Part shown: in pieces, positions 33,866 to 62,894 of the stretch
Layout: the number at the start of each line of letters is the position of its first letter
Numbering within the stretch: position 1 is the stretch's first letter
From: Bacteroidota bacterium
GTDB taxonomy: Bacteria; Bacteroidota; Bacteroidia; 2-12-FULL-35-15
Direction of reading: 5' to 3'
Length of the DNA: 64,000 nt
Assembly (NCBI GenBank): GCA_025963715.1
Contig: JAOQAG010000019.1
Coordinates: 15,330-79,329, forward strand
Program-made: the position numbers and the translations under genes
The notes under the pieces: model-generated
Told to the model about the DNA's origin: nothing
Databases searched by the model: none
What the model saw: only the letters and a program-made list of their open reading frames with translations

Positions 33866-35455
33866 TTATGCTTCTATCTGTATAATTTGTCCTGCATATT
33901 TACTCTTTACAAAATCAATAACAACCCCGCATCCCTTTTTTATCATTTCATCAGTGTATGCCGTCTGTTTTCTTATAACACCATGAGAACCATCATGCAT
34001 TAAGGAATATATAAATTCATTTTTACTTAGAACTTCTTTTTGTTCGCAAAAATCCTTTAAAGTTAAATTAGGTGCTTCAAACTTATTAATTGTTTCAAGT
34101 ACATGCCTAACAGAATTTGGGGTAGTGTGTGATGGCTTGTTTCCATTGGAAACACTATGTATATCTCTAAGATGTTCCTCATAAGGCATTACTAACTCCC
34201 TCGAAAGTATTGTTAATTTATTACTTGAAAGAATTAGAGGTTCTTGAATAATCTTATTCCGAATAAGAATACTCATAAATTCTAAATTATGAGTAAATAT
34301 TAAAAAGCGTATCCTTTCTAATTTTAAATCTATATGCAAGTTCCGTATAATTTGTGAAACAGAATAGACATAATGAAAATCTAAACTGGAAATAGGGTCA
34401 TCAATAATAAAAAATAGTTTCCCATAGTCTTCATCTTTTGAAATTACTTTGTGCATGTCTGCTAAATAGTAACAAAAAGCGACAATACTTTTTTCTCCAT
34501 CACTTAATACGTCAATGGCATTGTTTTCTAATAATTGCGTATTGAATTTTAGGCAAAAAGTTTCTTCGTCAAAACTATATTTATCGCCAAAAAAGCTATT
34601 TAAATATATTTTCAAGCTTTCTACAACCTTTTCTTTCTTACTCACTTTTACGCTACTTTCCTTACCAGAAATGTCATTTTCGAGTTCTTTCTTTTTAAGA
34701 TATAAAGCTTTAATTTTTTTTATTTGCGTCTTCTGCTCATCCTGCAGAGCAATGTATCGTGCCTTACATAACCTTCGGTTAATATTTAATTTTTCCGAAC
34801 TTATATTATTTTTTTTATCATTTATGGTATTTATTTTGAAATTGTTTTCACTGGCATTATCGTCTAAATGTTTAATTTGATTATTAATATTTTTAATAGA
34901 TGCTTCATATTCTTTTTTGTCAATCGACAGTTCAATATTATTTTTCTTTTTATCCAACAATTTCAATAACGTCTTAAATTCGTCAATTAGATATTTATAA
35001 TCTTTTAACTCAACTAACTCGGAGTTACTATCAGATGGGATAAATTTTTTAAGAGAATTATATTCATTTTTAATTTTCAAAAACAAAGAATTATCATTTA
35101 CTAATTCTTTTTCAAGTGCCATTATTGACTGGCTTAGTTTTTTTATTTGTGAATGCACTTGTGCTTCCGAATCATTTAAATATTCTGTGTATTTATCAAT
35201 TAAAGCAATTGCATCGATTTTCAAGATTTGTTCACAGAAAGGGCAATTATCTTTTCCACTGATCTCTTTTGGAAGAAGTGCTAAACCATGCTCAATAAAA
35301 TCCTGTTTACTAACTATTTTATTTTTGAAGTTATCAGCGATTGAGCTTTTAGAATATTTTGTATTAAATAGTGCAATCAAATCAATAAGGAAATTTGCTT
35401 TAGAAAAATAAAAAATTTGAGAAACATCCTTTAAATCCTCAGGAATATTGCTTAA
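33866..35455 (-). pseudogene. C-terminal 529 codons of a disrupted RloC-like AAA_13 ATPase-HEPN gene
   Basis: Zn-hook CPFC, signature LSDGEK, Walker B FIIDDPISSLD, THN, HEPN-like RHVLE..HDGSH; no Walker A; in frame with 59712-60362. Confidence 0.88.
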
Positions 35456-35463
35456 CAATTTAT
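35456..35463 (+). repeat. Left 8-bp target-site duplication CAATTTAT
   Basis: Identical to 59712-59719 and directly abutting the terminal inverted repeat. Confidence 0.92.
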
Positions 35464-35496
35464 GGTACGTATGTGGTTCAACACCATGCCTAAACA

Positions 35497-35563
35497 ATAT
35501 AAAGTTCAGGAACGTGGCTTAGCTTTTAAAGATTAGGCCCCTTTGATATTTGTTCAGGAACTT
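35497..35563 (+). repeat. Left subterminal repeats, consensus T(A/T)TAAAG(A/T)(A/T)(C/T)AGGAACGT
   Basis: 35497-35515, 35524-35542 and a degenerate copy near 35546-35563. Confidence 0.65.
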
Positions 35564-35935: not shown

Positions 35936-36721
35936 TTATGCTTCATTACATATCCGCACAAATCTATCTCCAATAGATGTAAAGGTAAATTTATTACTAT
36001 TTGAAACATCCACGTCCACATCAATCTCTGTGTTTTCTGGATCATCCGAAGTTTTTTCGGCTTTTACCAGGACATCTGTTTCCCACATTAATAGTCCAAG
36101 AGAAATTAAATTTGAAATACTGAACTCTAATTCTAACCTGGGAATTTTCATTTCTTTAGATAGACGAATAACACTATAAGAAAAACGGCTTAGCTTATAG
36201 CCTTCAGGAGTGTTTGGCGGTGCTAAAAATTGGTAGAGCTTAGCATTAGTTCTCTGTTCATGTTTGACAGTATCTTCTGCATGCACTTTTTTTCTCCTTT
36301 CCGACAGGTCTTTATGAAGGTCATCTAGGAGTTTGGCTTCTAGAGAGGATAGTTTATTGAGTATGGAAATGCAATTTTGTTGAAAAACAACATCCTTATC
36401 TCCTTGAAGGATATGAGCTACCAGATTTGACCATTTGTCTTGTAAACTCTCTTCTTCTTCAAGGGAGCTATATTCAATTAAAGGAGCTAGGATTTTTAAG
36501 GAAACTTTTTGTGGATTAATTTTATTTTGTTCTAGCTTTTCAACGGCTTTGGAAAATATTTTTATTTGATTAGTAAACCGCCTTAACCTTACCTGATCCG
36601 CAATCATTTCACCAACCTCGTTGAATGATGGTCCAAACAAGGTTTTCAAGAGTGCTTCACTCTTATCCAGCAATTGCTTTGGAAGGTTTAAATTCTCGAA
36701 TATTTTTTCAATATTAGCCAT
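35936..36721 (-). CDS. Abi-alpha/DUF4393-like protein
   Basis: GEMIADQVRLRR, KILAPLIEYSSLEEEESLQDKWSNL, C-terminal wHTH SISNLISLGL..FTSIGDRFV. Confidence 0.75.
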   Translation of the reverse strand: MANIEKIFENLNLPKQLLDKSEALLKTLFGPSFNEVGEMIADQVRLRRFTNQIKIFSKAVEKLEQNKINPQKVSLKILAPLIEYSSLEEEESLQDKWSNLVAHILQGDKDVVFQQNCISILNKLSSLEAKLLDDLHKDLSERRKKVHAEDTVKHEQRTNAKLYQFLAPPNTPEGYKLSRFSYSVIRLSKEMKIPRLELEFSISNLISLGLLMWETDVLVKAEKTSDDPENTEIDVDVDVSNSNKFTFTSIGDRFVRICNEA

Positions 36722-37349: not shown

Positions 37350-38198
37350 CTATACTTTTCGTTTATTTATTAGCCCCTTTAATTCTTCTACAGAGAGATA
37401 TCTTCCTTCATGTTTTCTATGTAACATTCTATGACAGTTTGCGCATACCAAGGCTAAATCACTCACTCTTGTCCATCTTTCAACTCCTTTACCAATAGGA
37501 GTTTTATGATGACATTCTATAAATCCTTGTCCCACACCAGGATAATAGACTTCAAAATTAAAATCGCATGATTCGCATTTAAGAGTGGTGGCTTGATTTT
37601 TAGCCAAGGTTATAATGCTCATATCACGCTCATAGTATCGGTGTTCTCGCATTTCCTTCTTTTGAGCCCCCTCTAGCACTCCATAATTATCATCAGCATC
37701 AACAAGATTCAGCTTACTTGTAATGATATTATCAAACGATTGCCATATGATTGATTGTTTCCTTTCTTTATTGATTTTAGCAAATCCTTTTCGAGTAACT
37801 ATTAAATCTACCTTGAAGCATAAACCTCTGCTGACTTTTGAAAAATTAAGATTAATTCGACTAGATAGAATCCCTGGACTTTCTTTTCCAAGTACACGAA
37901 CTAATCTTGTATTTGGATAATTTGTAGCATTCTCATCAATGTATACATCATTATCAACTGGTGTTACAAGATGAGTAAGATAGGTTCCCTTTTGAATTCC
38001 TAAGTTGCTGTTTACCGTTTGAAATAAAAGTATTATGTCATCAACACGAGGCAACGATACATTTATTCCATAATGCTCAGACCAATTAAGAGGAAAGATA
38101 CTTCCTACTTCCTGATTCTCATAGGCCCAGCTATTTCCATTATCTCTTTTGACATTTTTGACCCACTTTATATGAGTTTGATCGTATTTCCCATCCAT
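37350..38198 (-). CDS. HNH endonuclease (McrA-like C-terminus)
   Basis: CESCDF..GFIECHHKTP..DLALVCANCHRMLH. Confidence 0.85.
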   Translation of the reverse strand: MDGKYDQTHIKWVKNVKRDNGNSWAYENQEVGSIFPLNWSEHYGINVSLPRVDDIILLFQTVNSNLGIQKGTYLTHLVTPVDNDVYIDENATNYPNTRLVRVLGKESPGILSSRINLNFSKVSRGLCFKVDLIVTRKGFAKINKERKQSIIWQSFDNIITSKLNLVDADDNYGVLEGAQKKEMREHRYYERDMSIITLAKNQATTLKCESCDFNFEVYYPGVGQGFIECHHKTPIGKGVERWTRVSDLALVCANCHRMLHRKHEGRYLSVEELKGLINKRKV

Positions 38199-41684: not shown

Positions 41685-41860
41685 ACATTTCAATGGACAC
41701 TTTTCGACTTCCAGGACATCGAAATAAAGGTCATTTTTAGAAATGGCTTCAAAAAAATTATCCAATGAAAACACCCGTTTTCATTGGATAATAGAGAATA
41801 AGAAGTTTATGTACTCAAATAATCCATATTTCAATGGACACTTTTTGACTTCCAAGACAA
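41685..41860. repeat. 35-bp repeat x2 (41685-41719, 41826-41860) flanking a 15-bp-stem hairpin (41757-41792); third copy at 62559-62593
   Basis: ACATTTCA(A/C)TGGACACTTTTCGACTTCCAGGACAT. Confidence 0.8.
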
Positions 41861-41885: not shown

Positions 41886-42674
41886 CTATTTCAGCCATTC
41901 GATCTTTGTAATAACAGGTTCGGTGCTTAAGAATGCCATTGAAGCCTTGTTGCTACTATCTATCACTTTGGGTTCTATTGTTATTTTAGCCGCTCTTTCT
42001 ATATTGTCTGGAATTAAATTGAGTATGTATCCCGATCCGAAAATAAAGACACATTGAGATTTTTTGGGACCACCATCGCCTGAGAAAATAGTGGCTACGG
42101 TAGAATATCCTTTACCGTCATCAAATAAGCGCAATGTTTCCGTTGTCTCATCTTCTTTCTTTATATCAAGAAAGTAGCCTCGCTCATCTTTTTTTCTTGA
42201 CATCTTTATCAACATGCCATTATATTCTTTTACTTGTGACGTTTCAGAATTAGCATCACCAACAAGCTCAATTTTAGAAACAACTCTTTCTGCTCCGTTC
42301 ATTGAATATGTCATATTCACTTTTCTACCTAAGTATTTTGGATTAGCAACATACTGATCTTTTTCTTTGAGCAGCACATCTTTTGTCTCTGCATTCATTA
42401 CAAGATCACCTTTGACCATGATATGACCAGGAATGTCACTTGAGCCTTGACAAAAAGCAAAGTTCAACCTTTTGCCATTATCCAATATAATACCTGCATC
42501 TGACGAACCTTGGTATGATCCACACCACATGTTTTTAATCGTACCTGATACAATCGAATCTGCTTTAATAACTTCAACAGTTGGTTCTGCAGCATTTGTA
42601 TTTGTGCCTTGGTTTCCATTGCATGAAGAATGAAAGGCAAGAATAATTAATGAGTAAGCAATTGTTTTTTTCAT
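41886..42674 (-). CDS. Hypothetical lipoprotein
   Basis: Lipobox HSSC; overlaps the stop of the upstream XRE gene. Confidence 0.72.
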   Translation of the reverse strand: MKKTIAYSLIILAFHSSCNGNQGTNTNAAEPTVEVIKADSIVSGTIKNMWCGSYQGSSDAGIILDNGKRLNFAFCQGSSDIPGHIMVKGDLVMNAETKDVLLKEKDQYVANPKYLGRKVNMTYSMNGAERVVSKIELVGDANSETSQVKEYNGMLIKMSRKKDERGYFLDIKKEDETTETLRLFDDGKGYSTVATIFSGDGGPKKSQCVFIFGSGYILNLIPDNIERAAKITIEPKVIDSSNKASMAFLSTEPVITKIEWLK

Positions 42675-43057
42675 TTTTTTCGAATTTTAGTTTTACTGGT
42701 TTGTTTTAATAATGAATCAACCACACCCTTCAAATGTGCATTCTCTGACTTTAAAGATTCGATATGGGCTTCCTGTGCTTCAAAAGTTTTTTGCTCGAAT
42801 TTTGAACGATGGTTGATGACCAATCCATTCGCTTTCTTATTATGCGTCAGATTGAAAACAATGTGCTCATTACCGATTAACTCAATTATTGATACATCGA
42901 GCACATCTGCTATTTTTAAAAGTTTGGAAAAAAGAATGTCTCCACCATTCTCGAACTGCGAGACTCCGCGCTGCGACCAGCCTATGGCCTCAGCTACATA
43001 CTCCTGACTATAGTTAAGGCTTTCACGAATGAGTTTTGTGTTCCTGGAAACATTCAT
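42671..43057 (-). CDS. XRE-family HTH regulator
   Basis: IRESLNYSQEYVAEAIGWSQRGVSQFENG..LLKIADVLDV. Confidence 0.88.
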   Translation of the reverse strand: MNVSRNTKLIRESLNYSQEYVAEAIGWSQRGVSQFENGGDILFSKLLKIADVLDVSIIELIGNEHIVFNLTHNKKANGLVINHRSKFEQKTFEAQEAHIESLKSENAHLKGVVDSLLKQTSKTKIRKK

Positions 43058-43140: not shown

Positions 43141-43545
43141 TTAATAAAACTTGCGGTTTATAAAATCTGAAATATGATTGGCCAGATCAATAGGTGTTGA
43201 ATCTTCGGCAAGCTTGGATTTACCGTAATCAGGATGATTAAAGTTGACAGTAAAAATCCATAGTGTTTCTAATAAGTCTAAACCAAACCAGTCAATGATT
43301 GAATGAATTGTACTTGCGCCTTTTTCTATATTAACAAGTACAGGACTACCATCACGCTTATAACGCCATTCTTCATACCATTCTGGCATATCTTCAAACG
43401 GCCACAAGATGAAATAAGCATCGAAAGCTTCCTCACCAATTACATGCATGTTTACTTTTACAGGTTTCTCAACGAAGCCTTCTGGCAAATGACTTATCTT
43501 GTCTGCGAATTCAAGTAATCTTCTTTTTTGTAATTTCTCTTCCAT
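43141..43545 (-). CDS. Hypothetical protein
   Basis: 134-aa ORF at the end of the transposase-led gene run. Confidence 0.65.
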   Translation of the reverse strand: MEEKLQKRRLLEFADKISHLPEGFVEKPVKVNMHVIGEEAFDAYFILWPFEDMPEWYEEWRYKRDGSPVLVNIEKGASTIHSIIDWFGLDLLETLWIFTVNFNHPDYGKSKLAEDSTPIDLANHISDFINRKFY

Positions 43546-43561
43546 AGTTTTATTATTTAGT

Positions 43562-43699
43562 TTAACATATCCATTCTAAAGCGCCTTTTACATATCCTTT
43601 TACAAATGCTTCCCGCTCGTAGCGTGTCAGCCAATTTCTGTTTGGACCAGCAGATTTCTTGGCCATTGTTTTGATTTGCCTTAGTTGTTTTTTGCGCAT
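43562..43699 (-). CDS. 45-aa hypothetical protein (not in ORF track)
   Basis: MRKKQLRQIKTMAKKSAGPNRNWLTRYEREAFVKGYVKGALEWIC*; starts 1 bp after the upstream stop. Confidence 0.55.
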   Translation of the reverse strand: MRKKQLRQIKTMAKKSAGPNRNWLTRYEREAFVKGYVKGALEWIC

Positions 43700-43700
43700 A

Positions 43701-43922
43701 TTAATTGTAGTTATAGTGTTTTAAATGCATTAATAGAACTTCTTTCCAGACTTCCTGATCCACAATATTTATCCTGGTTGGAATCTCAAGCGGCTTAAAT
43801 TCTAAACCCTCTTTAAGTGATTTTCCATTCTCAAGTTGAACAAAATTGCCAGGTGTCGATAAAAATCTGGCAAAGTGATTCCAAATAAACAGATCGAACT
43901 CAACTTTCTTAAGTGTCTTCAT
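43701..43922 (-). CDS. Hypothetical protein (73 aa)
   Basis: ATGA-coupled to the upstream 52-aa ORF. Confidence 0.6.
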   Translation of the reverse strand: MKTLKKVEFDLFIWNHFARFLSTPGNFVQLENGKSLKEGLEFKPLEIPTRINIVDQEVWKEVLLMHLKHYNYN

Positions 43923-44077
43923 TGAAAGTCCTCCAGAAATAAATGGTTTTGCCTGATAAAATAAAAGGCTTTTTTCGCATCTTTGGTTGCTTTTATGGCT
44001 TCCTCTTCAGGCAAGATGTCCCGAAAAAGATTTAATAGCTCATGATCTAATGCTGTGGGTTTGTAATTTTTTTTCAT
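43919..44077 (-). CDS. 52-aa hypothetical protein (not in ORF track)
   Basis: MKKNYKPTALDHELLNLFRDILPEEEAIKATKDAKKAFYFIRQNHLFLEDFQ*. Confidence 0.6.
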   Translation of the reverse strand: MKKNYKPTALDHELLNLFRDILPEEEAIKATKDAKKAFYFIRQNHLFLEDFQ

Positions 44078-44100
44078 TTTTATTTTGTTTTTATTGGTTA

Positions 44101-45597
44101 CTATTTTGATACAATTCTTTCAAGAGCTTCAACGATTCTCACCATTGCTACAACATCCATGTGACAGTACTCAAGCAGGTCTCGCTTGGTTTGTATTTGT
44201 TCCTTATAAGAAAGCTTATGAAAGTTCTCGTATTGTGCCATCGCTAAAGCACCATTATTAATCCGAAGGTCTTTATAAGATAATTCAGGCACCAATGCAG
44301 GTAATACGCGTTTTATACTATGTGAGCCTTGAAATGAAGGATGATAGTAATGCCGTTTAGCAAAAGGTTCCATAAGGTCTTTTAGTCTGCTAATACGTTC
44401 ATTAATTTCTTCAGCATATTCTGGAAATTTAATGGCCAACTCTTTTAAACGGAGACTCTCAAATCCCTGATTATATACAATGATGCTTCCTTCCTCATCT
44501 GTATCCATTAAAAGGTTCTCTATGAATGCCCTTCTAGGATCAGATCCAGGTTTAGCCAGGAATTCTTTCCGTATCAAATCTGATTTAATATTCTCCTGGC
44601 GAAGAATTGAATATTGAAAACACATTTGCTGATAAGGCTTGGTGCCTTTGTATATTGGTATAGCAGGCATAAAACTCTCAAAATCCATAAAGATTAGAGG
44701 CTCATTGAGATTTAAGTATTGTAAAAAATCTCTGATGGCTTTATGATTTATTTTAGGCTGGCCATTTGATACCGCCTGAGCTTCTATCCATTGACTTTCA
44801 CTTAATTTCGTGTCTTTGGGAATCTGGCTCACTTCATTTATTCCTTGTTCTGATAATTCATCTGCTTTATCTTTCCTAAGCCTTCCAAGATGCCAAATAG
44901 ATTTAGGTGATACATTTCTCCAGCAATGAATCATGAAACCGCAAGGACGAGGTTTGAAGCAATGGCTGCCAATTGAAATTTTAGGCGGCATGCTACTATT
45001 CAATGTAGTTTCTATTTGTTGCAAATGTCTTTCGATGAGAACTTGCGCCTGCTTCGCCCTTGTAGTTACATTTTCAATAATAAATAATTTATTGATATCT
45101 AAAGTGTCGCCCAATACATATGCTTTATTCAAATACGCTATATGGATTTCTGTATCCTTATCATAGCCAGCCTGTTTCAATACATAGTACTGAAAGGCAA
45201 CATCAAGAATCTGCTCTGGAAGCTTTATAGAAGTTGAGCTTTTAACTTCAATAAGTTTATTTTTCTTTTGTGAAGTCACAAATATGTCTGCCTGGAAACG
45301 ATAATTACCGTCAGGTGTTGCAAATGCTGGCTCATAAAATATTTGGTTCTCAGAGTTGAGCAATCTTTTTGTTTCTTCAATCAAATCAAAAGATCTGATC
45401 TTGCCACCTTGAGTTACATCAATTCCACCTCGATAAAGTTGTCTGGCAACAATACCCACAGCGGTTCCTTTATCCATTATTGCTTGTTGTTCAATAGTAA
45501 TAGCAGGGCGAAGCTCAGTGGCTGCACAATGCATAAAAATTGCTTTAAGGCACTGAGTACCTTTCATAAATGTAGATTTCGAGATTTTATATTTCAT
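44101..45597 (-). CDS. DUF2779 protein: Cas4-like PD-(D/E)xK domain plus DnaQ/RNase H-like domain
   Basis: ISKS.FMKG.QC, QADI..LIEVKSS..DVAFQ, CGFMIHC, MDFES, YNQGFE, SIKRVLP, YCHMDV. Confidence 0.85.
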   Translation of the reverse strand: MKYKISKSTFMKGTQCLKAIFMHCAATELRPAITIEQQAIMDKGTAVGIVARQLYRGGIDVTQGGKIRSFDLIEETKRLLNSENQIFYEPAFATPDGNYRFQADIFVTSQKKNKLIEVKSSTSIKLPEQILDVAFQYYVLKQAGYDKDTEIHIAYLNKAYVLGDTLDINKLFIIENVTTRAKQAQVLIERHLQQIETTLNSSMPPKISIGSHCFKPRPCGFMIHCWRNVSPKSIWHLGRLRKDKADELSEQGINEVSQIPKDTKLSESQWIEAQAVSNGQPKINHKAIRDFLQYLNLNEPLIFMDFESFMPAIPIYKGTKPYQQMCFQYSILRQENIKSDLIRKEFLAKPGSDPRRAFIENLLMDTDEEGSIIVYNQGFESLRLKELAIKFPEYAEEINERISRLKDLMEPFAKRHYYHPSFQGSHSIKRVLPALVPELSYKDLRINNGALAMAQYENFHKLSYKEQIQTKRDLLEYCHMDVVAMVRIVEALERIVSK

Positions 45598-46523
45598 TAG
45601 GCCGCGATTTTAGAGTAAGTGTGTGTTAATGATGGTAGGCGTTTTAAAAGTTCATGAAAGCCATAATCATAATCGTACCTGAAGGTGTGACGAAAAGAAA
45701 ATTCCGAGAGATAATTAGGAAGTGTTTTTTGCGTAACATTTCTATATGTTCCTTCAATCATTGACTTGAAATTTTTAAATGCATTCTCTGCAGAATTCGT
45801 TGATGCATTCTCTCTGGTGAATTCATGTTTGTGATGATTAACCATAACATGGTCATATCCCAAGGATTTGAGTTTGTTGTACGCACCCCAAGTATCTGTT
45901 GAAATTGTTGTAGAGACAGGCACGTTAGCTGTTATTATCGGAATAATAGTATCAGCATCTGCTGAAGGAATAACAAACATTTTACACTTACCTCTTCGCT
46001 CAATTATGGCAAGTATTGTAGTGTTGCGTTGATTTCCCCTTCCACGACCCATGTAAAAATGACGCCCCATTCCTTTCCCGCCAGTTGGAACGTAGCTTTC
46101 ATCTATTTCAACTACAGTGTTTGCAAATTCAAAATCCAAACACTCATCCATTAGCTGACGAATAGCATTTAAAACCCTGAAAACCGTAGGGTATGAAAAG
46201 CCATAAGTGCGATGAATTTCTTTAGCTGAAATACCGTTTCGGGAATAAACCATCTTAAACATAATTTCAAACCAATCATTAATCGCAACATGTGTATGGT
46301 CGAAAATTGAATCTACCATTGGATACACATGCTTTAAACATTTAGAACAGATAAATGCTTTCTTACCCCGTAGTCGATGATAATATCTATCAATAGGAGC
46401 ATCACAATTTGGAGAAAAGCAAATCCTGTCTTCGCTCATACGGAATTCCAAGAGGGCCTTGAGACAATGCTCCTCCGTACCATATTTTTTCTTAAAAACT
46501 TGAGTGGTCATGAATTTTTGCAT
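45597..46523 (-). CDS. IS1595 family DDE transposase (ISXO2-like domain)
   Basis: N-terminal Zn ribbon C..PNC..CSKC, VEIDESYV, IERRG, STDTWGAY, H..VNH, TNSAENAF, YLSEFSFR. Confidence 0.93.
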   Translation of the reverse strand: MQKFMTTQVFKKKYGTEEHCLKALLEFRMSEDRICFSPNCDAPIDRYYHRLRGKKAFICSKCLKHVYPMVDSIFDHTHVAINDWFEIMFKMVYSRNGISAKEIHRTYGFSYPTVFRVLNAIRQLMDECLDFEFANTVVEIDESYVPTGGKGMGRHFYMGRGRGNQRNTTILAIIERRGKCKMFVIPSADADTIIPIITANVPVSTTISTDTWGAYNKLKSLGYDHVMVNHHKHEFTRENASTNSAENAFKNFKSMIEGTYRNVTQKTLPNYLSEFSFRHTFRYDYDYGFHELLKRLPSLTHTYSKIAA

Positions 46524-46558
46524 AAGTTTTCTTTTTTTAGAAATTTGTCTTAAAAATG

Positions 46559-46590
46559 TTTGCTTTATATAATAATTGTTTATACATTTG
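46559..46590 (+). promoter_or_regulatory. Canonical Bacteroidetes primary-sigma promoter pointing away from the transposase
   Basis: TTTG (46559-62), 20-nt spacer, TACATTTG (46583-90). Confidence 0.7.
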
Positions 46591-46596
46591 CCTTAA

Positions 46597-46727
46597 CAAA
46601 AGGGAAGATTCCAAAAAGAAGATCCCCGTCCAAGCAAAAAGCCCAGATATACTCGCAAGGTTATTAGGTAAAAAGCTTACAGGACACAAGAATAGACCTG
46701 AATTGCGCCAACAATTCAGGTTTTTTT
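46597..46727 (+). ncRNA. Candidate ~130-nt small RNA
   Basis: Consensus promoter upstream, intrinsic terminator downstream, no ATG in between. Confidence 0.45.
46696..46727 (+). terminator. Intrinsic terminator
   Basis: ACCTGAATTG-CGCCAA-CAATTCAGGT stem followed by a T run. Confidence 0.75.
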
Positions 46728-46741
46728 ATGTCTAAAGCCTA

Positions 46742-47308
46742 TTAAAATCCAGAAACACTATAGTTCTCTGGTCTTTTTTGTTCTTCGGTTAAATTTTTAA
46801 GTATGTCCTCAGCTGGTTCATGACCAGGAAGAATTCTATAGCCCACTTTTTTGCCATCACTCTCTTGCTCAATCCATTCATGGCGAGTAGTGTAGAAGCT
46901 GTATAAGTTGGAGTTATTCATTTTGAGATTAACGAGTTTCTTCTCCTTTATAAGTTTGACCATTTTCTGAGCTAAGTTCTTTAGAGTTTTAGCTGCAGCC
47001 CGTTTACCCTCGATTTTCTCGATAATATCCTCTATGTCACGTTTTCTCCATATAGAATGGTCCTTATCCTCAATATAACGTAGTTTATCCAAGATAGACT
47101 CATTAAATGGGTAATTTGGCCAATCAGGATTAGTGGCAGGTCCGCCATTTCCTTTTTCTTCCGTTTGAGGAACTTCGGAATCGCCTTTAATTATGGCAAG
47201 TGCTTTTTTAAGTCGCTCAGCCTCATCAAGATGCATAATAATTTCATCTTCAAGGCCACGGATAATGGTTTCTAGGTTGTTTTTTACCATTTTTCTTATT
47301 TTTCTCAT
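46742..47308 (-). CDS. Hypothetical protein (coiled-coil N-terminus, possible wHTH)
   Basis: 188-aa ORF upstream of the transposase. Confidence 0.7.
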   Translation of the reverse strand: MRKIRKMVKNNLETIIRGLEDEIIMHLDEAERLKKALAIIKGDSEVPQTEEKGNGGPATNPDWPNYPFNESILDKLRYIEDKDHSIWRKRDIEDIIEKIEGKRAAAKTLKNLAQKMVKLIKEKKLVNLKMNNSNLYSFYTTRHEWIEQESDGKKVGYRILPGHEPAEDILKNLTEEQKRPENYSVSGF

Positions 47309-47551: not shown

Positions 47552-47890
47552 ATGAATACCTTAATTAAAATACGAAAAGTGGTCAGAGATACTTTACGGG
47601 AGAATTATTTTAGTCCTGCAAAAGACAATTGGGAAATCCATGATGATAATGGATGTATCTCAAAAGGAGATTACAATAAGATCATCCATCAGTGGAATAT
47701 TAATTTTTTGGCAGATTGGGCTTACAAAAACATATATGGTAATACTGACCGAAACCCTAAACTTATAATTAAAGAATGGAGTGGTCAGCTAAGATTGATC
47801 TGTGTGGTTGACGAAAATAGTTCAGCAACAGGCAAACATTACAACACCTCGTTATTGAATGGAGAACCTCAGATTCCGCTGTCTCTATGA
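47552..47890 (+). CDS. Hypothetical protein
   Basis: 112-aa ORF with ATG start. Confidence 0.55.
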   Translation: MNTLIKIRKVVRDTLRENYFSPAKDNWEIHDDNGCISKGDYNKIIHQWNINFLADWAYKNIYGNTDRNPKLIIKEWSGQLRLICVVDENSSATGKHYNTSLLNGEPQIPLSL

Positions 47891-50398: not shown

Positions 50399-52414
50399 TT
50401 ATGATTTGTTGAATCCTTGCTTTTGTAATTTTAATTTTTCATAAAGTTCGAAATCCAACAGAGCTGCTATCGTATTTATATGCTTTATTGTGAACCCTTT
50501 CGGCTTATTCTTGCTGTGCAATTCTGCTTCGAGCTCTCTCCGCAGCGAATCCAATGCGGATGTGTTTTCATATTCTATTATTAAAGAAGTCATGCAATTT
50601 TCTATACACTTTTCAATCCAATTTAAGTACGGCTTCAAATCGCTTCTTCCATTTATCGGCTTTAATAAATTATCAATGCTTTCGGGATTAGATTCATAAA
50701 TTACAATTGTTTTCGAGGTTTCTTTTTCATCATTATTATCAACATTAATAGGTGGAGCAAGTGAAATTGTTTTTAATTGTGGTAATAATGGTTCAAGCTC
50801 ATCTTTTAGTGTCATATCAATAGCTGCAACTATACCTAAGTTCTCCTTTTTCCATAGAGGTTTTACATAAATTTTGGCAATAGATACAAATCCATTAAAT
50901 GATCCCCAATAATTCATTGCATAATTATAGGAAGGAATATAAAACTGTTCGCAATACCCTAACAGATCTTCAAAACTTTTATACTTTAAAACAAATACAG
51001 CAAAATTTGAAATGATTACTGACTTAATTGAGCGAATATCGAAGGCCGCTTGCTTTCCGTTTATAAAATTATAAAATGTAATCAGATCAAGTCTTTGCCT
51101 GGATTTCTCTCCAAATAGTTCCGTTACCCTGTTTCCTACATCAATAATAAGAGTATTAATATCTTCGCCAGAAACTTCCCCAAAACTATGTTTGTTCTTA
51201 TTCCATAAAAGATTAACAATATACTCATGCAGTTTTTTTTGTTCGGAGTCCAGTTTATTGGATTTATGCAAATATTTTATTTCGTCACCTTGTAAATGGT
51301 AATCTTTAAGGCACGCAGCAATATCGGCTGCAGTTGGTTCCTGGCTAGAGCTTTTGAATTGAGATAATTTCTGAGAGAAGTTTTCAATTCGTTTCTCTAT
51401 TTTTTCTATAATTTTAGTTTTGTAACTATTGTGATAATAAGAGTTTGAAACCTGGATAACTTCTCTTTGCATATCATCAATTTCAAATTGAATGCTAGGA
51501 GCAACCTTCTCCGAACTTCTATATAAAAACTGCATTAATTCAGGCATTTTAGAAGAGGTTCTTAAAATGGAATTTATATCCTCTTCAGCAATGCCTTTAG
51601 AATCCAGCAACGCCTTTACTTTTTCTGCTGGATTTATTGGCGCGTGTTTAGAAATTATGCTTTTAAGTTGAATAAATGATTTACCAACAAGATTAAGTGC
51701 ATACTCGATATTTTCCCCCTTCTTATTGTTTTTGTATTTTTTTTCTTCGGAAACGGCTAATACAGCGCTAACATATGAACGCCAAGATTTATACAATTCC
51801 CTAACCGCATTATCTATTGTAAGCTCATCATTATCTTTGATAAGCATTTTTGCAATGATGTTTGAATACAAAAGCCCTTTAAATGCATTTATAACTTCAT
51901 CTCTCTTTAATACATCAGTCGAAACACGATAATCATCCTGAACATTTATATTAAGATTACTTTTTTCACTCGATGATCCTAACTCTGAAAACGTTACAAA
52001 TTGTTTCTGATATTTTTCGATTGTCTTAGCTTCCAGGGAAGGTAAGCTCTTTGCAATGATTTGGTTCCTCTCGTTCGCATCTCTAAATACAAATACTGGT
52101 GAACAAAAATTTAAATAGATGTTATCCTTATAACCAATGACGGCTTGATCTCCTTTATTATCAATGGGGATACTATCATGTATATAGCCATTATTAATTC
52201 CAATGTAAAATATAAGCGCATCATCTTCAACAGGTAAAGATTCTGCTTCAGGCAAAAAATTGTATAATAGCAAAAGACTCTGCAACGGACTAGCCGTATT
52301 ATAGAAGAATCTTTTGCTACCAAATTTTCTCTCTTTATAGAAAGAACCAGGTGATATACTTTCACCTGAAAATATTGAATTGAAATTAAACGAGTTTACT
52401 GGTATATATAACAT
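50399..52414 (-). CDS. Large hypothetical protein coupled to the helicase
   Basis: 671 aa, starts 2 bp after the helicase stop. Confidence 0.8.
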   Translation of the reverse strand: MLYIPVNSFNFNSIFSGESISPGSFYKERKFGSKRFFYNTASPLQSLLLLYNFLPEAESLPVEDDALIFYIGINNGYIHDSIPIDNKGDQAVIGYKDNIYLNFCSPVFVFRDANERNQIIAKSLPSLEAKTIEKYQKQFVTFSELGSSSEKSNLNINVQDDYRVSTDVLKRDEVINAFKGLLYSNIIAKMLIKDNDELTIDNAVRELYKSWRSYVSAVLAVSEEKKYKNNKKGENIEYALNLVGKSFIQLKSIISKHAPINPAEKVKALLDSKGIAEEDINSILRTSSKMPELMQFLYRSSEKVAPSIQFEIDDMQREVIQVSNSYYHNSYKTKIIEKIEKRIENFSQKLSQFKSSSQEPTAADIAACLKDYHLQGDEIKYLHKSNKLDSEQKKLHEYIVNLLWNKNKHSFGEVSGEDINTLIIDVGNRVTELFGEKSRQRLDLITFYNFINGKQAAFDIRSIKSVIISNFAVFVLKYKSFEDLLGYCEQFYIPSYNYAMNYWGSFNGFVSIAKIYVKPLWKKENLGIVAAIDMTLKDELEPLLPQLKTISLAPPINVDNNDEKETSKTIVIYESNPESIDNLLKPINGRSDLKPYLNWIEKCIENCMTSLIIEYENTSALDSLRRELEAELHSKNKPKGFTIKHINTIAALLDFELYEKLKLQKQGFNKS

Positions 52415-52416
52415 GG

Positions 52417-53529
52417 TTATCTTTTAGGCCTAAAATCATTTTTTTCATATAATCCATTTGGAATTGGCTCCAAATAAGAGTGAAAGTCATTGGTGCAGGT
52501 AATGGTTAATTCCTGACTTGCCCTGGTACATGCAACATACAAAGGTGTTTTTTCTTTTATTTTTGAATTTTGCTTTGAACAAAAAGGTAAAAACACATTT
52601 TCAAATTGCAATCCTTTCGCACTATGATAAGTAAGAATTTTTGGATTATCCGTCATGAAATCTAAAGTCATAACATCTGGGTTTGCTGCAATGTCTTCTT
52701 CATCATCACTATCACTTTTTTTCTTACGATATTTTACTTCGCACGTGATATCTCTGGCAAGAAGTTCATTAAACAATCTTTCTGCTGCTTCATTATCTGG
52801 CAATAATATACCAACATCTCTTAATCCCTTAGAGGTTATCTGATTTATAATAAATTCTATTTCGGCTGTATCTGATTTACAAACCGCAATAGTTGGAATA
52901 CGTGCTCCTTCTTTTTTACATTGTGATTCTAACGGATCACTGGTTGAATTTAAATGCTGAGCAAATCGGGCAATTTTTTTAGGAAGTCTATGGTTGATCT
53001 TTAAATTACGTATTGGCAAGTTTAAAGTTGCTGCAATTTCTTCTACCGATAAAGTTTTTTCCTTTTTTTCTGTTTTGGTGGTATAATCTCTAACAGTTTT
53101 AATAGGATATAACTTTTGCGCAGTGTCACCGAATAATGCCATGGAGATAGTTGCATTTTTTTGGAATGATTCTATTTCTTCTAAAGTGAAATCTTGAACT
53201 TCATCTACAATTAAATGAGTTACAGTTGGCATGCCAGCATATTTCCACTGGTCATAAGTCATTACTTTTTTCCAGCTATCCTTTGCATATGGGTTATCCG
53301 TGAGAACATCCTTCATGAATTTTTTTAGGGCCTTAGTATATACTATTATCCGACAATCCTCGCCAGTGGCTAAAACTTCAATAGCCCTCCATATGGCAAG
53401 AATGGTTTTCCCACTCCCTGCACAACCTTTTACAACATAGGAATTATTAAGGCTCATTCGCTTGATATTGTACTGATTATCATCTAGTTCACTTTCAGAT
53501 ATGAACCAACTTTCTCTTTGTGCTGCCAT
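52417..53529 (-). CDS. Minimal superfamily-1 (UvrD-like) helicase
   Basis: GCAGSGKT, IVDEVQD, FGDTAQ, NHR, TYHSAKGLQFENV, LYVACTRA. Confidence 0.88.
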   Translation of the reverse strand: MAAQRESWFISESELDDNQYNIKRMSLNNSYVVKGCAGSGKTILAIWRAIEVLATGEDCRIIVYTKALKKFMKDVLTDNPYAKDSWKKVMTYDQWKYAGMPTVTHLIVDEVQDFTLEEIESFQKNATISMALFGDTAQKLYPIKTVRDYTTKTEKKEKTLSVEEIAATLNLPIRNLKINHRLPKKIARFAQHLNSTSDPLESQCKKEGARIPTIAVCKSDTAEIEFIINQITSKGLRDVGILLPDNEAAERLFNELLARDITCEVKYRKKKSDSDDEEDIAANPDVMTLDFMTDNPKILTYHSAKGLQFENVFLPFCSKQNSKIKEKTPLYVACTRASQELTITCTNDFHSYLEPIPNGLYEKNDFRPKR

Positions 53530-53556
53530 ATTTTTTTAAATTAAATTGTTACATTA

Positions 53557-53587
53557 TTTGACAAATATAGAAAATTTATTATATTTG
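53557..53587. promoter_or_regulatory. Overlapping divergent promoters
   Basis: Plus: TTTG(53557-60)-19 nt-TATATTTG(53580-87). Minus: CAAATATA(53562-69) reads TATATTTG. Confidence 0.65.
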
Positions 53588-53609
53588 TAACAGATTTAAA
53601 AAATAAATT

Positions 53610-53951
53610 ATGGATAACACAATTGGCAAAAATCTAAAAGCCCTCAGAGATAGCCTCGGACTTAGTCAAGAGCAGGTAGCTAATTACTTAACGATTGAGA
53701 GGGTGATGATTAGTTATTATGAAAATGGCACTCGATCAGTGCCAATACCAACTTTAATGAAGCTTGCAGATTTATTTGGGGTTGAAACAAAAGACTTATT
53801 AGAAGAAAACCAAAAACAATCTCAACTCAATAGTGCATTTGCATTTAGAGCAAGCAATGTTTCTGAAAAAGATATGGAAGTCATTGCTTCATTTAAAAGA
53901 ATAGCAAGAAATTATATTAAAGCAAAAGAAAAATTAAAATCAAATGATTGA
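53610..53951 (+). CDS. XRE-family HTH regulator
   Basis: LKALRDSLGLSQEQVA..ISYYENG..LMKLADLF; C-terminal AFR motif. Confidence 0.9.
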   Translation: MDNTIGKNLKALRDSLGLSQEQVANYLTIERVMISYYENGTRSVPIPTLMKLADLFGVETKDLLEENQKQSQLNSAFAFRASNVSEKDMEVIASFKRIARNYIKAKEKLKSND

Positions 53952-54651
53952 GCGTCTAAAAATGGAAAAAAGAGCAATTGCCTTTCGCGAAAGGTATAAT
54001 ATTGGTCCAACGGAGGCAGTAAAATATTATGATTTACTGGAACGGTTAGGAATTATCACCCTTTTTGCAGAACTATCAGATGGTGTTTCTGGAATGGCTA
54101 TTAAAGTTGATGATTATAGGTTTATGCTTATTAACCGCAATATGGTTATGGGTAAGCAACATTTCACTATTGGTCATGAACTATACCACTTGTATGAGCA
54201 GGAAGATTTTTCCTTTAAGGTATCAAGTGTTGAAAATTTTTCAAGACAGGATAAAGAGGAGTATTTAGCAGATCTTTTTGCTTCACATCTTCTTTTGCCT
54301 GGTGCAGGCATCCTTGCACTGGTGCCTGATGGAGAATTGGCAAAAAATAAAATTGACATAACTACTATTCTTAAGATAGAACAATATTTTCTATGCTCAA
54401 GGATTGCCGTTTTGTATCGTTTAAAAGAACTAGGATTAATTTCAGACGATTACTCTGAGCAGTTTAAAACGGGTATTGCAAAATCTGCTCTTGACCATGA
54501 TTACCCACGTGATTTGTACTTCGCAACAACAGAAGATAAATTTTTCGGGACTGATTACATTTCTACGATTGAAACCCTTTATGAAAAGGGCATAATGAAA
54601 GAAATTGATTATATAACCAGTATGCAAGATATTGGAATCGCTAAAATTTAA
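53944..54651 (+). CDS. ImmA/IrrE family Zn metallopeptidase
   Basis: FTIGHELYH (HExxH), E..ADLFASHLLLP. Confidence 0.9.
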   Translation: MIERLKMEKRAIAFRERYNIGPTEAVKYYDLLERLGIITLFAELSDGVSGMAIKVDDYRFMLINRNMVMGKQHFTIGHELYHLYEQEDFSFKVSSVENFSRQDKEEYLADLFASHLLLPGAGILALVPDGELAKNKIDITTILKIEQYFLCSRIAVLYRLKELGLISDDYSEQFKTGIAKSALDHDYPRDLYFATTEDKFFGTDYISTIETLYEKGIMKEIDYITSMQDIGIAKI

Positions 54652-54659
54652 TATGCTTT

Positions 54660-55214
54660 ATGACAGAACTATTACTACTCGCGGATTCCGATATACTAAT
54701 CCATTTTTTTAGAGGTAACAAATTAAAATTACTGCCTAAGATTCTTCCTAACAAGATTTGCCTGCTGGATGCCGTTGTTGCAGAGCTGCAGTATGGGAGA
54801 TCTCCGACTCTTTATGATCGGATAATGAAGGAAATTGGCAGCTCTATAATTTTGGAAAAATTTACTGACAAGCCCTTGATCTATAACGAATGGGTGAAGT
54901 TAGTACGAGCAGATATTGGCTCAGGTGAAAGTGCATGTTTAGCAATGGCTAGGTATGAAGGGCATCACATCGCGAGTTCGAATCTAAGAGATATTAACGA
55001 TTATTGTAAGGACAACAAAATCAGGGTGTACACAACTATGGACCTAATTCATGAAGCTTATACTAAAGGTCTATTAACTGAAGATGATTGTGATTCCTTT
55101 ATAATTGATGTTCTAGATGCAGGTAGCAGACTTCCCTGCAGCACATTTGCTGAATACCTTGCAAAACATGCATCCAAAAGTCCCTGGCGGTCATATGACA
55201 GGAGAGTTGCATAA
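54660..55214 (+). CDS. PIN-domain protein
   Basis: LLADSDILIHF, VVAEL, GSGESACLA, IASSN..D. Confidence 0.78.
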   Translation: MTELLLLADSDILIHFFRGNKLKLLPKILPNKICLLDAVVAELQYGRSPTLYDRIMKEIGSSIILEKFTDKPLIYNEWVKLVRADIGSGESACLAMARYEGHHIASSNLRDINDYCKDNKIRVYTTMDLIHEAYTKGLLTEDDCDSFIIDVLDAGSRLPCSTFAEYLAKHASKSPWRSYDRRVA

Positions 55215-58452: not shown

Positions 58453-58509
58453 AATATGAGCACAAAAAAAGAGGAATCTACTTGATTCCTCTTTTTTTGT
58501 GCTCATATT
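58453..58509. terminator. Perfect 26-bp-stem hairpin, probably a bidirectional terminator
   Basis: AATATGAGCACAAAAAAAGAGGAATC-TACTT-GATTCCTCTTTTTTTGTGCTCATATT. Confidence 0.7.
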
Positions 58510-58626
58510 TACTTTACTTCAAGATTTAGTAGTTAATAAAAATTTGCTGCTAAACATTTGAAAGAACACCCAGGCTTAGCAAATACTTGGATTATAAGTT
58601 ATCTTTACTACAAAAAACAACATAAT

Positions 58627-59619
58627 ATGACTGAAGACGAAATTCGTAATAGTTGGATTTACCAAACCACGGGTGAGATCAATCTTCATCAACCTGGAGT
58701 TGATATTGGAACACAGCCAATTCGTGTTGTACATGCTTTGACAATTTATCTTTATCAGCGGACTAATCCTGAATTTTTTAATGAAATTTTATCTGGTAAA
58801 GGTGCAGGGGATAATATTGATCTGGTGGTTGGTGAAGAACCCATTACAATTGAATCTGGTGGTAAAAGAACCCCAAGAGTGCATCTGAATACAAAAAAAA
58901 TTGAACTGCACGAAACTTTTCTTTCTTATTTGTGGGCTACAATTTATTCGATATTTGTTCTTCATTCAGAAACCATTGATTATCCTGAGATAAATGCAAG
59001 GGTTGGATTGATAAGATATCCAATTTCAGAAGCAAACATTGCTTCCGCAAAAGAATTGTTTGCATATGCAAAAAAAATAATACGATTTTTTGATACTTGG
59101 GATAAGGAAACACTTCCCAATCCTGAAGTGTTTCCAGCTGAAAACAGGCACTATGTGCGACAAACTTGCGCCTTTTATACAGAAGCTGTGAAATTTATTC
59201 TATGTCATGAATATACGCACTTAAGAGACCATAGTCATAAATACGCAAATGCTGATGTATCACATTTTCTTGAATTTGAAAAGGAAGCGGATAACAATGC
59301 AATAGATATGATGAAAAAGGGAATTACACCCATCAATCAGTTAGCAGTCGAAAATGGCATTATTTTCGGTCTTTTATCCATGTTTTTTTTCGGTGCTAAT
59401 ACTAGTGGAGGACTGACACATCCTAATGTGGAGGATCGTTTAATAAATGCAATTGAGCGACTTGATTTAATTGACAATCAATATCCCTGGCAATTAGCGT
59501 ATGTTGCTTTTAAACTTTGGGATGAACAATTTGAACTTAATCTAGAATGGAAAAACTTGCCAACATACCAAGAGAAATTCCATGACATTATACTACAAAT
59601 AAAACAAAGGTCCGCATAA
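58627..59619 (+). CDS. Phage exclusion protein Lit-like metallopeptidase (U49); ATG start reassigned
   Basis: FILCHEYTH, EKEADNNA, THP..EDRL. Confidence 0.72.
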   Translation: MTEDEIRNSWIYQTTGEINLHQPGVDIGTQPIRVVHALTIYLYQRTNPEFFNEILSGKGAGDNIDLVVGEEPITIESGGKRTPRVHLNTKKIELHETFLSYLWATIYSIFVLHSETIDYPEINARVGLIRYPISEANIASAKELFAYAKKIIRFFDTWDKETLPNPEVFPAENRHYVRQTCAFYTEAVKFILCHEYTHLRDHSHKYANADVSHFLEFEKEADNNAIDMMKKGITPINQLAVENGIIFGLLSMFFFGANTSGGLTHPNVEDRLINAIERLDLIDNQYPWQLAYVAFKLWDEQFELNLEWKNLPTYQEKFHDIILQIKQRSA

Positions 59620-59626
59620 CCTCTCA

Positions 59627-59673
59627 ACGTTTCCAATCTTTATAAAGCCCAGGAACGTTCCTATTCTTTAAAA
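59627..59673 (-). repeat. Right subterminal repeats
   Basis: Reverse complements TTTTAAAGAATAGGAACGT (59655-73) and TTATAAAGATTGGAAACGT (59627-45). Confidence 0.65.
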
Positions 59674-59711
59674 CTTTAGGACTAAGAGCGGTTCTAAACT
59701 ACATACGTACC

Positions 59712-59719
59712 CAATTTAT
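59712..59719 (+). repeat. Right 8-bp target-site duplication CAATTTAT
   Basis: Identical to 35456-35463. Confidence 0.92.
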
Positions 59720-60362
59720 TTAACACCTTTAATTCTTTAAATGTTTTTTCTTCTTCATACTCAAGATTATTATCGTAAACATTTTGATAATTAAACTTAT
59801 ATTCTTTGGTTGCTTTGTTTACTTTCTCGATATCAAGTTCTTCTTTCGCAGAATCAATAGCGTCCTGAAAAATTATAATTTCTTCACGAAGATTTGTTTG
59901 CAGATCTTCTAACAATTTTTTTTCTTTACTTAAATCTATTACAGCTTTTCCGATTATATACCCTTCTATCTCACCATCTGCTTTATAATGCAATTCTTCT
60001 ATATTTTCTTTAACATAATCACTATTAAATACATGAAAAATATATCCAGTATCATTAATAATTACAGGCTCTTTATTCTTTTGTAATTTTATTGAAAGAT
60101 TTCTTGTTGTTTCCACGTTCTCCTTTTTTTCTTTAATTTGAAATGCAAAGGACCCACTGGTTTTGTTTATGGCTAATAGCTTATTGGTTTTTTCTGCAGT
60201 ATTTACATTAATCAATCGAAACATACGACTTAAAAAAGTTTTTCCACTTCCATTATTAGCAAAAACCCCAATTTTCAAAGCAGTCATAGGAAAAGTAGCG
60301 GTCAAATTTTCATGTGGACCAATATTTTGAGCTTCTATTTTTGTATTAATAGTTTTTGCCAT
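59712..60362 (-). pseudogene. N-terminal 217 codons of the disrupted RloC-like AAA_13 gene
   Basis: Walker A FANNGSGKT, HVFNSDYV..N; the tracked ORF ends inside the transposon TIR. Confidence 0.88.
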
Positions 60363-62478: not shown

Positions 62479-62894
62479 ATAATTTTTGTTTGTGGTTAGT
62501 ATGTAATTGTTTGGAAGAAGTAGAGAATAAAACCGCGTAAAGATGAACCATCCCTTCCACATTTCACTGGACACTTTTCGACTTCCAGGACATTTTCAGG
62601 GGATCAGTGTTTGTTTCGCCCACAAGCCAAACTGTACAAGCATTACAAGAGTATTTACGGAAGTGATTGCTCCCATGCGCTAAAAAAGAAGATTACCCAA
62701 AGGAAAGAAGCATCAACCTGCTGAACAATGCATTATTATCGATTACGCTTTACTAAAAAACAAAATGAATAAAAGATACGAAGCAATAGATATGCTTCAT
62801 TTCGTAGAAATTTGATTTCTTAATGAAATGGATAAACTTCTCCACAAACAAAAATTAAAATAAATTCCTTAACTTAAAACTCTCAATCAGCAGC

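Follow-up and report, generated by a model that had tools for sequence, protein, structure and literature searches.

Why does the gene of an IS1595-family transposase run into a gene for a two-domain nuclease? The question is raised by a 64,000-nucleotide stretch of DNA from a Bacteroidota bacterium (GenBank assembly GCA_025963715.1, contig JAOQAG010000019.1, positions 15,330 to 79,329 of the forward strand), referred to here as the window, in whose numbering positions are given unless a related locus is named. On its minus strand the transposase gene (45597..46523) is followed directly by a gene of the DUF2779 family (44101..45597), and an earlier note on this DNA had suggested that the two, together with a run of small open reading frames (ORFs) behind them, form the core module of a mobile element. 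Our analysis indicates that the pair is probably the conserved transposition core of a 24,248-bp cargo transposon of the IS1595 family, spanning 35464–59711, in which DUF2779 would act as an accessory nuclease. What stands of the earlier proposal is that the pair is the conserved core of an element bounded by terminal inverted repeats (TIRs), with an 8-bp target-site duplication (TSD); the limits of the module were set too narrowly, as the core also takes in a gene named F1 (46742..47308) and a helix-turn-helix (HTH) gene (42671..43057), and the element itself reaches from 35464 to 59711.

The pairing is shared by a whole clade of transposases. Homologue searches returned only 22 close relatives of the transposase, and more than 3,400 matches for the large DUF2779 family. 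Locus contexts were collected by exact-protein look-ups and by two collection scans (45 genome loci and 79 metagenome loci), and the loci were scored with hidden Markov models built from our own transposase and DUF2779 alignments; transposases of at least 390 bits constitute the clade, and ordinary relatives, from Actinomycetota, Chloroflexota and others, reach at most 204 bits. DUF2779 directly follows the transposase in 14 of the 14 clade loci with enough downstream sequence, namely the window, L001, L002, L003, L004, L006, L009, L019, the P0041 element (L054–L061 and L071, counted as one locus), L066, L068, L069, L072 and the P0008 contig, at 46–62% protein identity, and in none of the roughly 50 ordinary IS1595 relatives with more than 1 kb downstream. 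The survey that the earlier note had called for, of adjacency across genomes and of distant TIRs, was therefore positive, and the adjacency, far from being peculiar to this locus, is clade-wide and, in the complete elements, accompanied by distant TIRs and 8-bp TSDs. The nearest DUF2779 proteins outside the clade (41–43% identity) are encoded by solo chromosomal genes. Within it, pairwise identities of the transposase and of DUF2779 are correlated (r = 0.90 over 45 locus pairs), as are those of F1 and the transposase (r = 0.84). In a decayed member, L019 (9971–12389), the transposase is split into four ORFs and a DUF2130 gene is fragmented; DUF2779 is open there and has lost E117/K119, D305 and Y477/D481, from which the transposase and DUF2779 appear to have decayed together. 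On these comparisons chance is excluded, and the pairing is best described as a property of the clade.

The ends of the element lie far from the pair. In a control scan several ordinary relatives displayed perfect 25–27-bp TIRs about 1.04 kb apart around the transposase gene, which fits the statement of the earlier note that IS1595 transposases normally act alone, and the same scan of the DUF2779-linked clade gave background only, with no TIRs around the transposase gene. Local inverted-repeat searches, around the pair (41–49 kb) and island-wide, returned nothing but AT-rich noise; the TIRs were missed there because only 18 of their 25 terminal bases match. A wider local-alignment scan with shuffles was significant only in L001; it nevertheless brought out one motif in inverted orientation, its copies separated by 10.8–14.7 kb, that L001, L002 and L004 share, and from it the ends were recognised. 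Fourteen ends, drawn from nine loci, could be aligned on a common terminus, GG(T/C)AC.T.T….TTTAGcaCC, behind which subterminal repeats follow.

In the window, the right end (35464..35545, plus strand) comprises the TIR GGTACGTATGTGGTTCAACACC and the subterminal repeats AGGAACGT and TAAAGATTAGG, and the left end (59630..59711, minus strand) the TIR GGTACGTATGTAGTTTAGAACC with its own subterminal repeats; the 18 inverted-repeat matches among the 25 terminal bases include the first 11, which are identical. Directly outside both ends stands the same 8-mer, CAATTTAT (35456..35463 and 59712..59719). Two nhmmer models of the ends were used, one built from relatives only and one with the window's own ends included. 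The relatives-only model detected the left end over its whole length (59711, E 0.012) and only the subterminal part of the right end (model positions 25–61, 35506–35542, E 0.023), after which the right terminus GGTACGTATGT at 35464 was read from the sequence. With the window's ends included, the left end matched with an E-value of 3e-9 and the right end at full length with 1e-7, the latter match being obtained only from this model, which contains those very ends; no further full-length end was found in the 64 kb.

Perfect 8-bp TSDs flank five of five complete elements (10.8–24.2 kb), in target sequences that are unrelated to one another and AT-rich. Besides the window, these are the elements of L001 (6045–20767, 14,723 bp, TSD TTAATTAT), L002 (8018–18909, 10,892 bp, TTTTTTAA), L004 (21–10859, 10,839 bp, TCAAAATG) and L072 (3224–17323, 14,100 bp, TAATCTTT). 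An unbiased scan for combinations of TSD and TIR gave the same boundaries as its top hit in the window, L001, L002 and L004. Moreover, L001 carries an uninterrupted copy of the L002 target, that is, an empty site. This site lies 150 bp from the left end of the L001 element itself, and L001 also holds a second right-type transposon end, which belongs to an element to its left (the features lie at 2407–2473 and 5753–5894); together these observations suggest repeated insertions into one hotspot region.

The target in the window can be restored as well. The element interrupts a minus-strand candidate defence gene for PDC-S06, an AAA_13 protein, whose C-terminal part occupies 33866..35463 (PADLOC model PDLC04898, positions 217–748 only) and whose N-terminal part occupies 59712..60362, within a 222-aa ORF (59694..60362) that runs 18 nt into the transposon end. 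Removal in silico of 35464–59711 and one copy of CAATTTAT fuses this ORF with the N-terminally truncated AAA_13 ORF (33866..35497) into a protein of 746 aa, which matches PDLC04898 over positions 1–748 of 752 with 887 bits. The gene has no lesion apart from the insertion, which is therefore recent. By this reconstruction, an element that carries defence genes has inactivated a resident defence gene.

The transposase (308 aa, minus strand) looks active. It matches PF12762 (2.5e-30, 105.9 bits, cut-off 27) and the IS1595 family transposase model NF033547 (1e-46, 159.5 bits, cut-off 75), and an alignment of 20 clade members at 46–63% identity shows an invariant DDE triad of D141 (VEIDES), D210 (YTDSW) and E246 (STNxAE). 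The cysteines C35, C40, C59 and C62 of a putative N-terminal zinc ribbon are likewise invariant in these 20 proteins, with the zinc-ribbon model PF12760 at 16.7 bits, below its cut-off of 25.4. The clade is absent from the plasmid and phage collections searched, where the best matches were ordinary IS1595 transposases of at most 34% identity.

The neighbouring DUF2779 protein (498 aa, minus strand) joins an N-terminal Cas4/Exo5/MGME1-like PD-(D/E)xK nuclease to a C-terminal DEDD 3'-5' exonuclease, as the earlier note had anticipated in assigning it a Cas4-like and a DnaQ-like domain. It matches PF11074 (DUF2779) with 2.3e-41 and 141 bits, the Cas4 and RNase_H_2 matches being sub-threshold. Among 28 DUF2779 proteins the PD-(D/E)xK residues D104, E117, K119 and Q136 are invariant, and so are C16, C213, C219 and C225, with a layout like that of the Fe-S ligands of Cas4, and the DEDD motifs D305-x-E307 and Y477-x3-D481. 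The AlphaFold (AF2) model has a pLDDT of 93.8; in Foldseek searches its N-terminal half retrieved Cas4 of type I-C Cas4-Cas1-Cas2 complexes, Exo5, MGME1 and archaeal Cas4, and its C-terminal half Pol III epsilon and 3'hExo. The dual-nuclease fold is thus confirmed at the level of the predicted structure, and both nuclease domains look active. These fold matches and motifs agree with the published domain architecture of the family, which is described as an uncharacterised fusion of a Cas4-like nuclease and a 3'-5' exonuclease (PMC3985635, PMC13621843). PADLOC defence models matched DUF2779 in nothing beyond the generic Cas4 domain. Neither Cas1 nor Cas2 was found among the ORFs scanned in the low-GC island and just beside it (∼26–63 kb), where CRISPR arrays were not specifically searched for, and the Cas1 gene of L004 sits outside the L004 element.

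The two genes are physically joined and head a block of six minus-strand ORFs (308, 498, 52, 73, 45 and 134 aa), which the earlier note had described correctly, down to the ORF coordinates and the overlap of the transposase TAA with the DUF2779 ATG. Base 45597 belongs both to the stop codon of the transposase and to the start codon of DUF2779 (TAATG; GCGGCCTAATGAAA). This overlap is identical in four loci, and among intact elements the junction varies between an overlap of 4 nt and a gap of 21 nt. The four smaller ORFs are spaced by −4 to +23 nt, the 52-aa and 73-aa ORFs overlapping by 4 nt. All six ORFs are open, without stops, in L066, a relative with 87% nucleotide identity, and synonymous exceed non-synonymous codon changes between the two loci in every ORF but that of 45 aa (transposase 73/10, DUF2779 125/37, 52-aa ORF 12/4, 73-aa ORF 18/9, 45-aa ORF 7/17). 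This pattern indicates purifying selection on the block, the 45-aa ORF excepted.

Clustering of the ORFs of 13 loci defines a core of 6–8 conserved genes in fixed order: F1, transposase, DUF2779, one to three small ORFs, F4, and then either the HTH gene or a gene for DUF2130. F1 (46742..47308, minus strand) encodes a protein of 188 aa, coiled-coil at its N-terminus and with a conserved domain at its C-terminus, and stands directly upstream of the transposase in all 13 loci; it has no match in Pfam, NCBIfam, PHROGs or PADLOC, nor in a profile search of PDB sequences, and a homologue search returned only two proteins. The intergenic region between F1 and the transposase (46524..46741, minus strand) is kept in part in distant relatives. 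A hairpin right after the F1 stop (AAAAAAACCTG…CAGGT) is retained in the window (46524–46741), L068 (3937–4163), L054 (8915–9060) and L009 (9815–10001), as is, ahead of the transposase start, a block GGGGA.TC…CCCTT.TTG…GCAAATATA, at a protein identity of only ∼50% between the loci. These elements may represent an attenuator, a promoter or a small RNA; an Rfam search of the core and of the L001 target region gave nothing above chance. On the other side of F1, a divergent gene of 112 aa (47552..47890, plus strand; ∼100 aa in relatives) was found in five loci.

Downstream of DUF2779, the 52-aa ORF (43919..44077, minus strand) has a homologue in L009 and the 73-aa ORF (43701..43922, minus strand) has homologues in L001, L004 and L072. 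The fast-evolving 45-aa ORF (43562..43699, minus strand) is open in L066 and has no homologue in the other loci; its coding status is weak and it may not be a gene. None of the small ORFs matched PADLOC, PHROGs, NCBIfam or Pfam, or PDB sequences in a profile search. F4 (134 aa; 43141..43545, minus strand) is present in 10 of the 13 loci and otherwise rare, with 19 representatives among 1.84 billion proteins. Its AF2 model has a pLDDT of 93.4, and it found no fold neighbour in PDB or BFVD and no match in Pfam, NCBIfam, PHROGs, PADLOC or PDB sequences. F4 is tandem-duplicated in L004, and a 617-aa protein, P0152, matches it over five stretches, which suggests that P0152 is built of several F4-domain repeats.

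The last core gene of the window-type architecture encodes an Xre-type HTH regulator (42671..43057, minus strand; PF01381, 3.7e-13), with homologues at the same position in L001, L002, L004, L072 and the P0008 contig. It is overlapped by 4 nt by a 262-aa gene (41886..42674, minus strand) whose slot is variable in relatives. In L054, L068, L009 and L019 DUF2130, of the PD-(D/E)xK superfamily, takes the place of the HTH gene, within the core and immediately behind F4 or behind a small ORF (L054 12012–13247; L068 7133–8251; L009 12955–14145). The window has a DUF2130 gene too, at 60692–61954, just outside the element and adjoining the interrupted PDC-S06 gene. Extra partial transposase-like ORFs of ∼180–190 aa occur upstream of the core in L003 (7841–8862) and L068 (577–1122), that of L003 being followed by an F4 homologue; they may be remnants of a second core or of an internal duplication.

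Two further repeats were considered as borders of the island and rejected. The inverted 10-mer found at the left GC boundary is weak and does not exceed chance. A 33-nt direct repeat (CATTTCAATGGACACTTTTCGACTTCCAGGACA) occurs three times (41686–41718, 41827–41859 and 62560–62592, with 0, 3 and 1 mismatches), whereas chance alone would give none; as att sites or borders these copies were discarded, since two are internal, the third lies beyond the borders by which PDC-S06 is restored, and related loci lack the repeat. The internal copies flank a perfect 16-nt palindrome (41757–41792) and the outer copy is upstream of a lipoprotein gene, and the repeat may serve as a promoter or operator. Recombinases of the tyrosine or serine type were not found in 33.8–62.6 kb. 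In both respects, recombinase gene and border repeats, the region differs from an integrative island moved by such enzymes.

How the pair should be understood depends on several competing explanations. The simplest, that an ordinary IS1595 insertion sequence (IS) happened to land upstream of a resident DUF2779 gene, could appeal to the fact that IS insert anywhere and to the size of the DUF2779 family; it is refuted by adjacency in every clade locus at 46–62% protein identity with co-divergence of the two proteins, by the lack of TIRs around the transposase gene, and by a stop codon that overlaps the following start codon. It is also very improbable that the module is a domesticated defence or regulatory unit derived from a former transposase, its islands being moved by other recombinases with the 33-nt repeats as att sites. 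The elements are indeed single-copy and situated within defence islands, the P0041 core is flanked by genes for a large serine recombinase and for MerR, and the threefold 33-nt repeat exceeds chance expectation; against this, all five complete elements have TIRs and perfect TSDs in unrelated targets, L001 preserves an empty site, the PDC-S06 ORF is restored by excision in silico, neither a tyrosine nor a serine recombinase is found in the low-GC region of the window, of the three repeats the one at 62560 falls outside the restored borders and the other two inside them, and the DDE triad is invariant.

A more serious alternative, which we nevertheless consider unlikely, accepts a real IS1595-type transposon in which the transposase does all the chemistry and DUF2779 is a mere conserved passenger, such as a repair, anti-defence or defence nuclease. 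Solo homologues of DUF2779 in ordinary chromosomal contexts agree with this, as do the compact IS1595 relatives that move without a partner and the remaining cargo, which is defence-related. One DUF2779 member is quasi-essential in the minimal Mycoplasma JCVI-syn3.0 (PMC13621843), and MTnSag1 and tISCpe8 need no nuclease (PMC5704250). However, the other cargo varies and DUF2779 never does, its position immediately behind the transposase, overlapping or nearly so, is fixed, its divergence tracks that of the transposase, its catalytic residues are lost where the transposase is dead (L019), and no PADLOC defence model describes it beyond the generic Cas4 domain. We infer that a direct role for DUF2779 in transposition is likely because it is kept in place amid cargo turnover, is coupled to the transposase, co-diverges with it and has decayed in L019.

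Several observations weigh against the reading of the pair as a transposition core with an accessory nuclease. The ends of the DUF2130-type relatives (L054/P0041, L068, L009, L019 and L006) were found neither with the end model nor by the TSD and TIR scan within the sequence available for these loci. Public sequencing runs yielded no excision, circles or new insertions, the sole run that holds the sequence (from soil) holding it as contigs with no alternative junction; a search for an empty site via the neighbouring host gene likewise found only the same organism, as contigs. Each element is seen as a single copy, and the P0041 relative adjoins a large serine recombinase. The proposed role of DUF2779 is drawn from association, and its solo chromosomal genes, like the quasi-essential Mycoplasma member, indicate that the family works outside transposons too.

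If the pair is nonetheless a transposition core, as we consider probable, its mechanism may be envisaged as follows. From what is known of the IS1595 family, the transposase would bind the terminal and subterminal repeats and carry out 3'-OH cleavage and, with an 8-bp stagger, strand transfer, as small transporter IS of the family do. DUF2779 would be made in step with the transposase by coupled translation; its Cas4-like domain would most likely cut or resect the second strand or the flanking donor DNA, and its DEDD domain would trim 3' tails, processing that would allow the clean release and integration of elements of 10–24 kb. Regulatory or architectural roles would fall to F1, F4 and the HTH protein. 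Between this processing of the second strand or flanks with 3' trimming and a passenger role, we see the balance as roughly even. A stronger version, with DUF2779 as second catalytic subunit of a heteromeric IS1595 transposase convergent with TnsA-TnsB, and with F1 and F4 as new cofactors, is put forward tentatively, and we hold it somewhat less probable than its contrary.

The genes on both sides of the core differ between elements, without exception, and the cargo appears to be largely devoted to anti-phage defence. In the window it comprises an Abi_alpha abortive infection protein (35936..36721, minus strand; PF14337, 4.6e-24), an HNH endonuclease (37350..38198, minus strand; PF01844, with weak PADLOC matches to type IV restriction and a ZorE-like HNH), a UvrD/GajB-like helicase of 370 aa with a 671-aa partner (50399..53529, minus strand; Pfam and PADLOC), an HTH gene followed by an M78 peptidase (CapH/CapP-like) and a PDC-S70-like 184-aa gene (53610..55214, plus strand), a Lit-like phage-exclusion protease (58558..59619, plus strand; NF007238, 6.8e-30; PADLOC Lit, 3.2e-18) and a HEPN-like protein. 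The cargo of L001 includes DUF4365, HNH_5, SSB, D12 methyltransferase, HATPase_c and AAA_15, that of L002 Abi_alpha and DUF2441, that of L004 PIN_12 and a KAP NTPase, and that of L072 a SocA/Panacea antitoxin. The helicase pair (∼670-aa partner) and the trio of HTH, M78 and ∼184-aa genes recur in the P0008 element on the opposite side of the core from their position in the window (50399–55214), and such cassettes therefore move from one element to another. Between a 390-aa gene and that of Lit lies a perfect palindrome of 26 nt (58453–58509; loop of 5 nt), which probably terminates transcription in both directions.

Among known systems, the element fits the IS1595 family in its transposase, TIRs and 8-bp TSD, and departs from the notion of a compact IS whose transposase is the sole transposition gene by its size class (10.8–24.2 kb) and its core of 6–8 genes. 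The compact IS1595 relatives L101, L115, L119 and L139 have a homologous transposase (24–35% identity) with the same putative zinc-ribbon and DDE layout; they are single-gene elements of ∼1.04 kb with perfect 25–27-bp TIRs (CGGGCTTGTATACTTAACAAACGCA), unlike the distant, imperfect TIRs of the clade. The IS1595 family as listed in ISfinder spans ∼0.7–7.5 kb, and the two elements MTnSag1 and tISCpe8 are each ∼2 kb. With IS-like ends, a single transposase and defence-type passengers on both sides of the core, the element does fall under a loose definition of the transporter IS (tIS) (bioRxiv 10.1101/2021.05.26.445724). IS1595 tIS have TIRs of ∼25 bp and an 8-bp TSD, and a circular form of MTnSag1 has been reported (PMC5704250). 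The clade resembles MTnSag1 of Streptococcus agalactiae and tISCpe8 of Clostridium perfringens in its IS1595-type DDE enzyme, ∼25-bp TIRs, 8-bp TSD and passengers. In those elements a single transposition gene is accompanied by one or a few passengers (lnu genes, oriT), whereas clade elements hold 10 to more than 25 genes, with a central, fixed multi-gene core, cargo on both sides of it, subterminal repeats and defence cargo; in contrast to tIS with an oriT, neither oriT nor relaxase was seen in the window element.

Tn7 offers a second comparison. It is a large cargo transposon that encodes TnsA, a PD-(D/E)xK endonuclease, beside the DDE transposase TnsB and has multiple subterminal repeats to which the transposase binds, and Tn7-like elements are rich in defence cargo. 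The clade is similar in having a gene of restriction-endonuclease fold beside a DDE transposase gene, large size, subterminal repeats and defence cargo. However, its transposase belongs to the IS1595 superfamily and not to rve/TnsB, its TSD is 8 and not 5 bp, and its nuclease, unlike TnsA, resembles Cas4 and Exo5, has the cysteines of an Fe-S set and is fused to a DEDD exonuclease. Neither a TnsC-like ATPase nor a target selector was recognised and no attachment-site targeting is evident; searches of the core proteins against Pfam and NCBIfam gave no rve, TnsA or TnsC-type match, and in these features the element differs from Tn7-like transposons. A TnsA-like role for DUF2779 is hypothesized by analogy. 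Comparable logic is found in CRISPR adaptation, where Cas4 trims substrates for the Cas1-Cas2 integrase, and the clade shares with Cas4-Cas1-Cas2 and with casposons the genetic coupling of a Cas4-fold nuclease to an integrase or transposase. Unlike CRISPR Cas4, DUF2779 is partnered by a DDE enzyme, has an additional DEDD domain and is linked to no Cas1 or Cas2 among the ORFs scanned in the window. Some casposons also encode Cas4-like nucleases (PMC4046053). Our literature search found no paper that links IS1595 with DUF2779 or Cas4-like nucleases, the co-occurrences of IS1595 and Cas4 being incidental, and no transposon context in the literature that mentions DUF2779. The clade is an undescribed family of oversized IS1595-type transposons in Bacteroidota.

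Our results provide a new perspective on the IS1595 family, which is usually viewed as consisting of one-gene IS or at most small tIS, and in which this clade has grown to cargo transposons of 10–24 kb. They give DUF2779, widespread as a 'solo Cas4 plus exonuclease', its first clear genetic partner and with it a testable function, and the exact ends and TSDs make a mini-transposon assay directly buildable. For Bacteroidota, the clade points to an additional vehicle, besides Tn7-like elements, that moves anti-phage defence systems. If DUF2779 is the second subunit, an IS1595 enzyme would have been turned into the mover of 10–24-kb defence cargo, and if the nuclease is catalytic in transposition, this would be a second, independent invention of a heteromeric transposase composed of a nuclease and a DDE enzyme.

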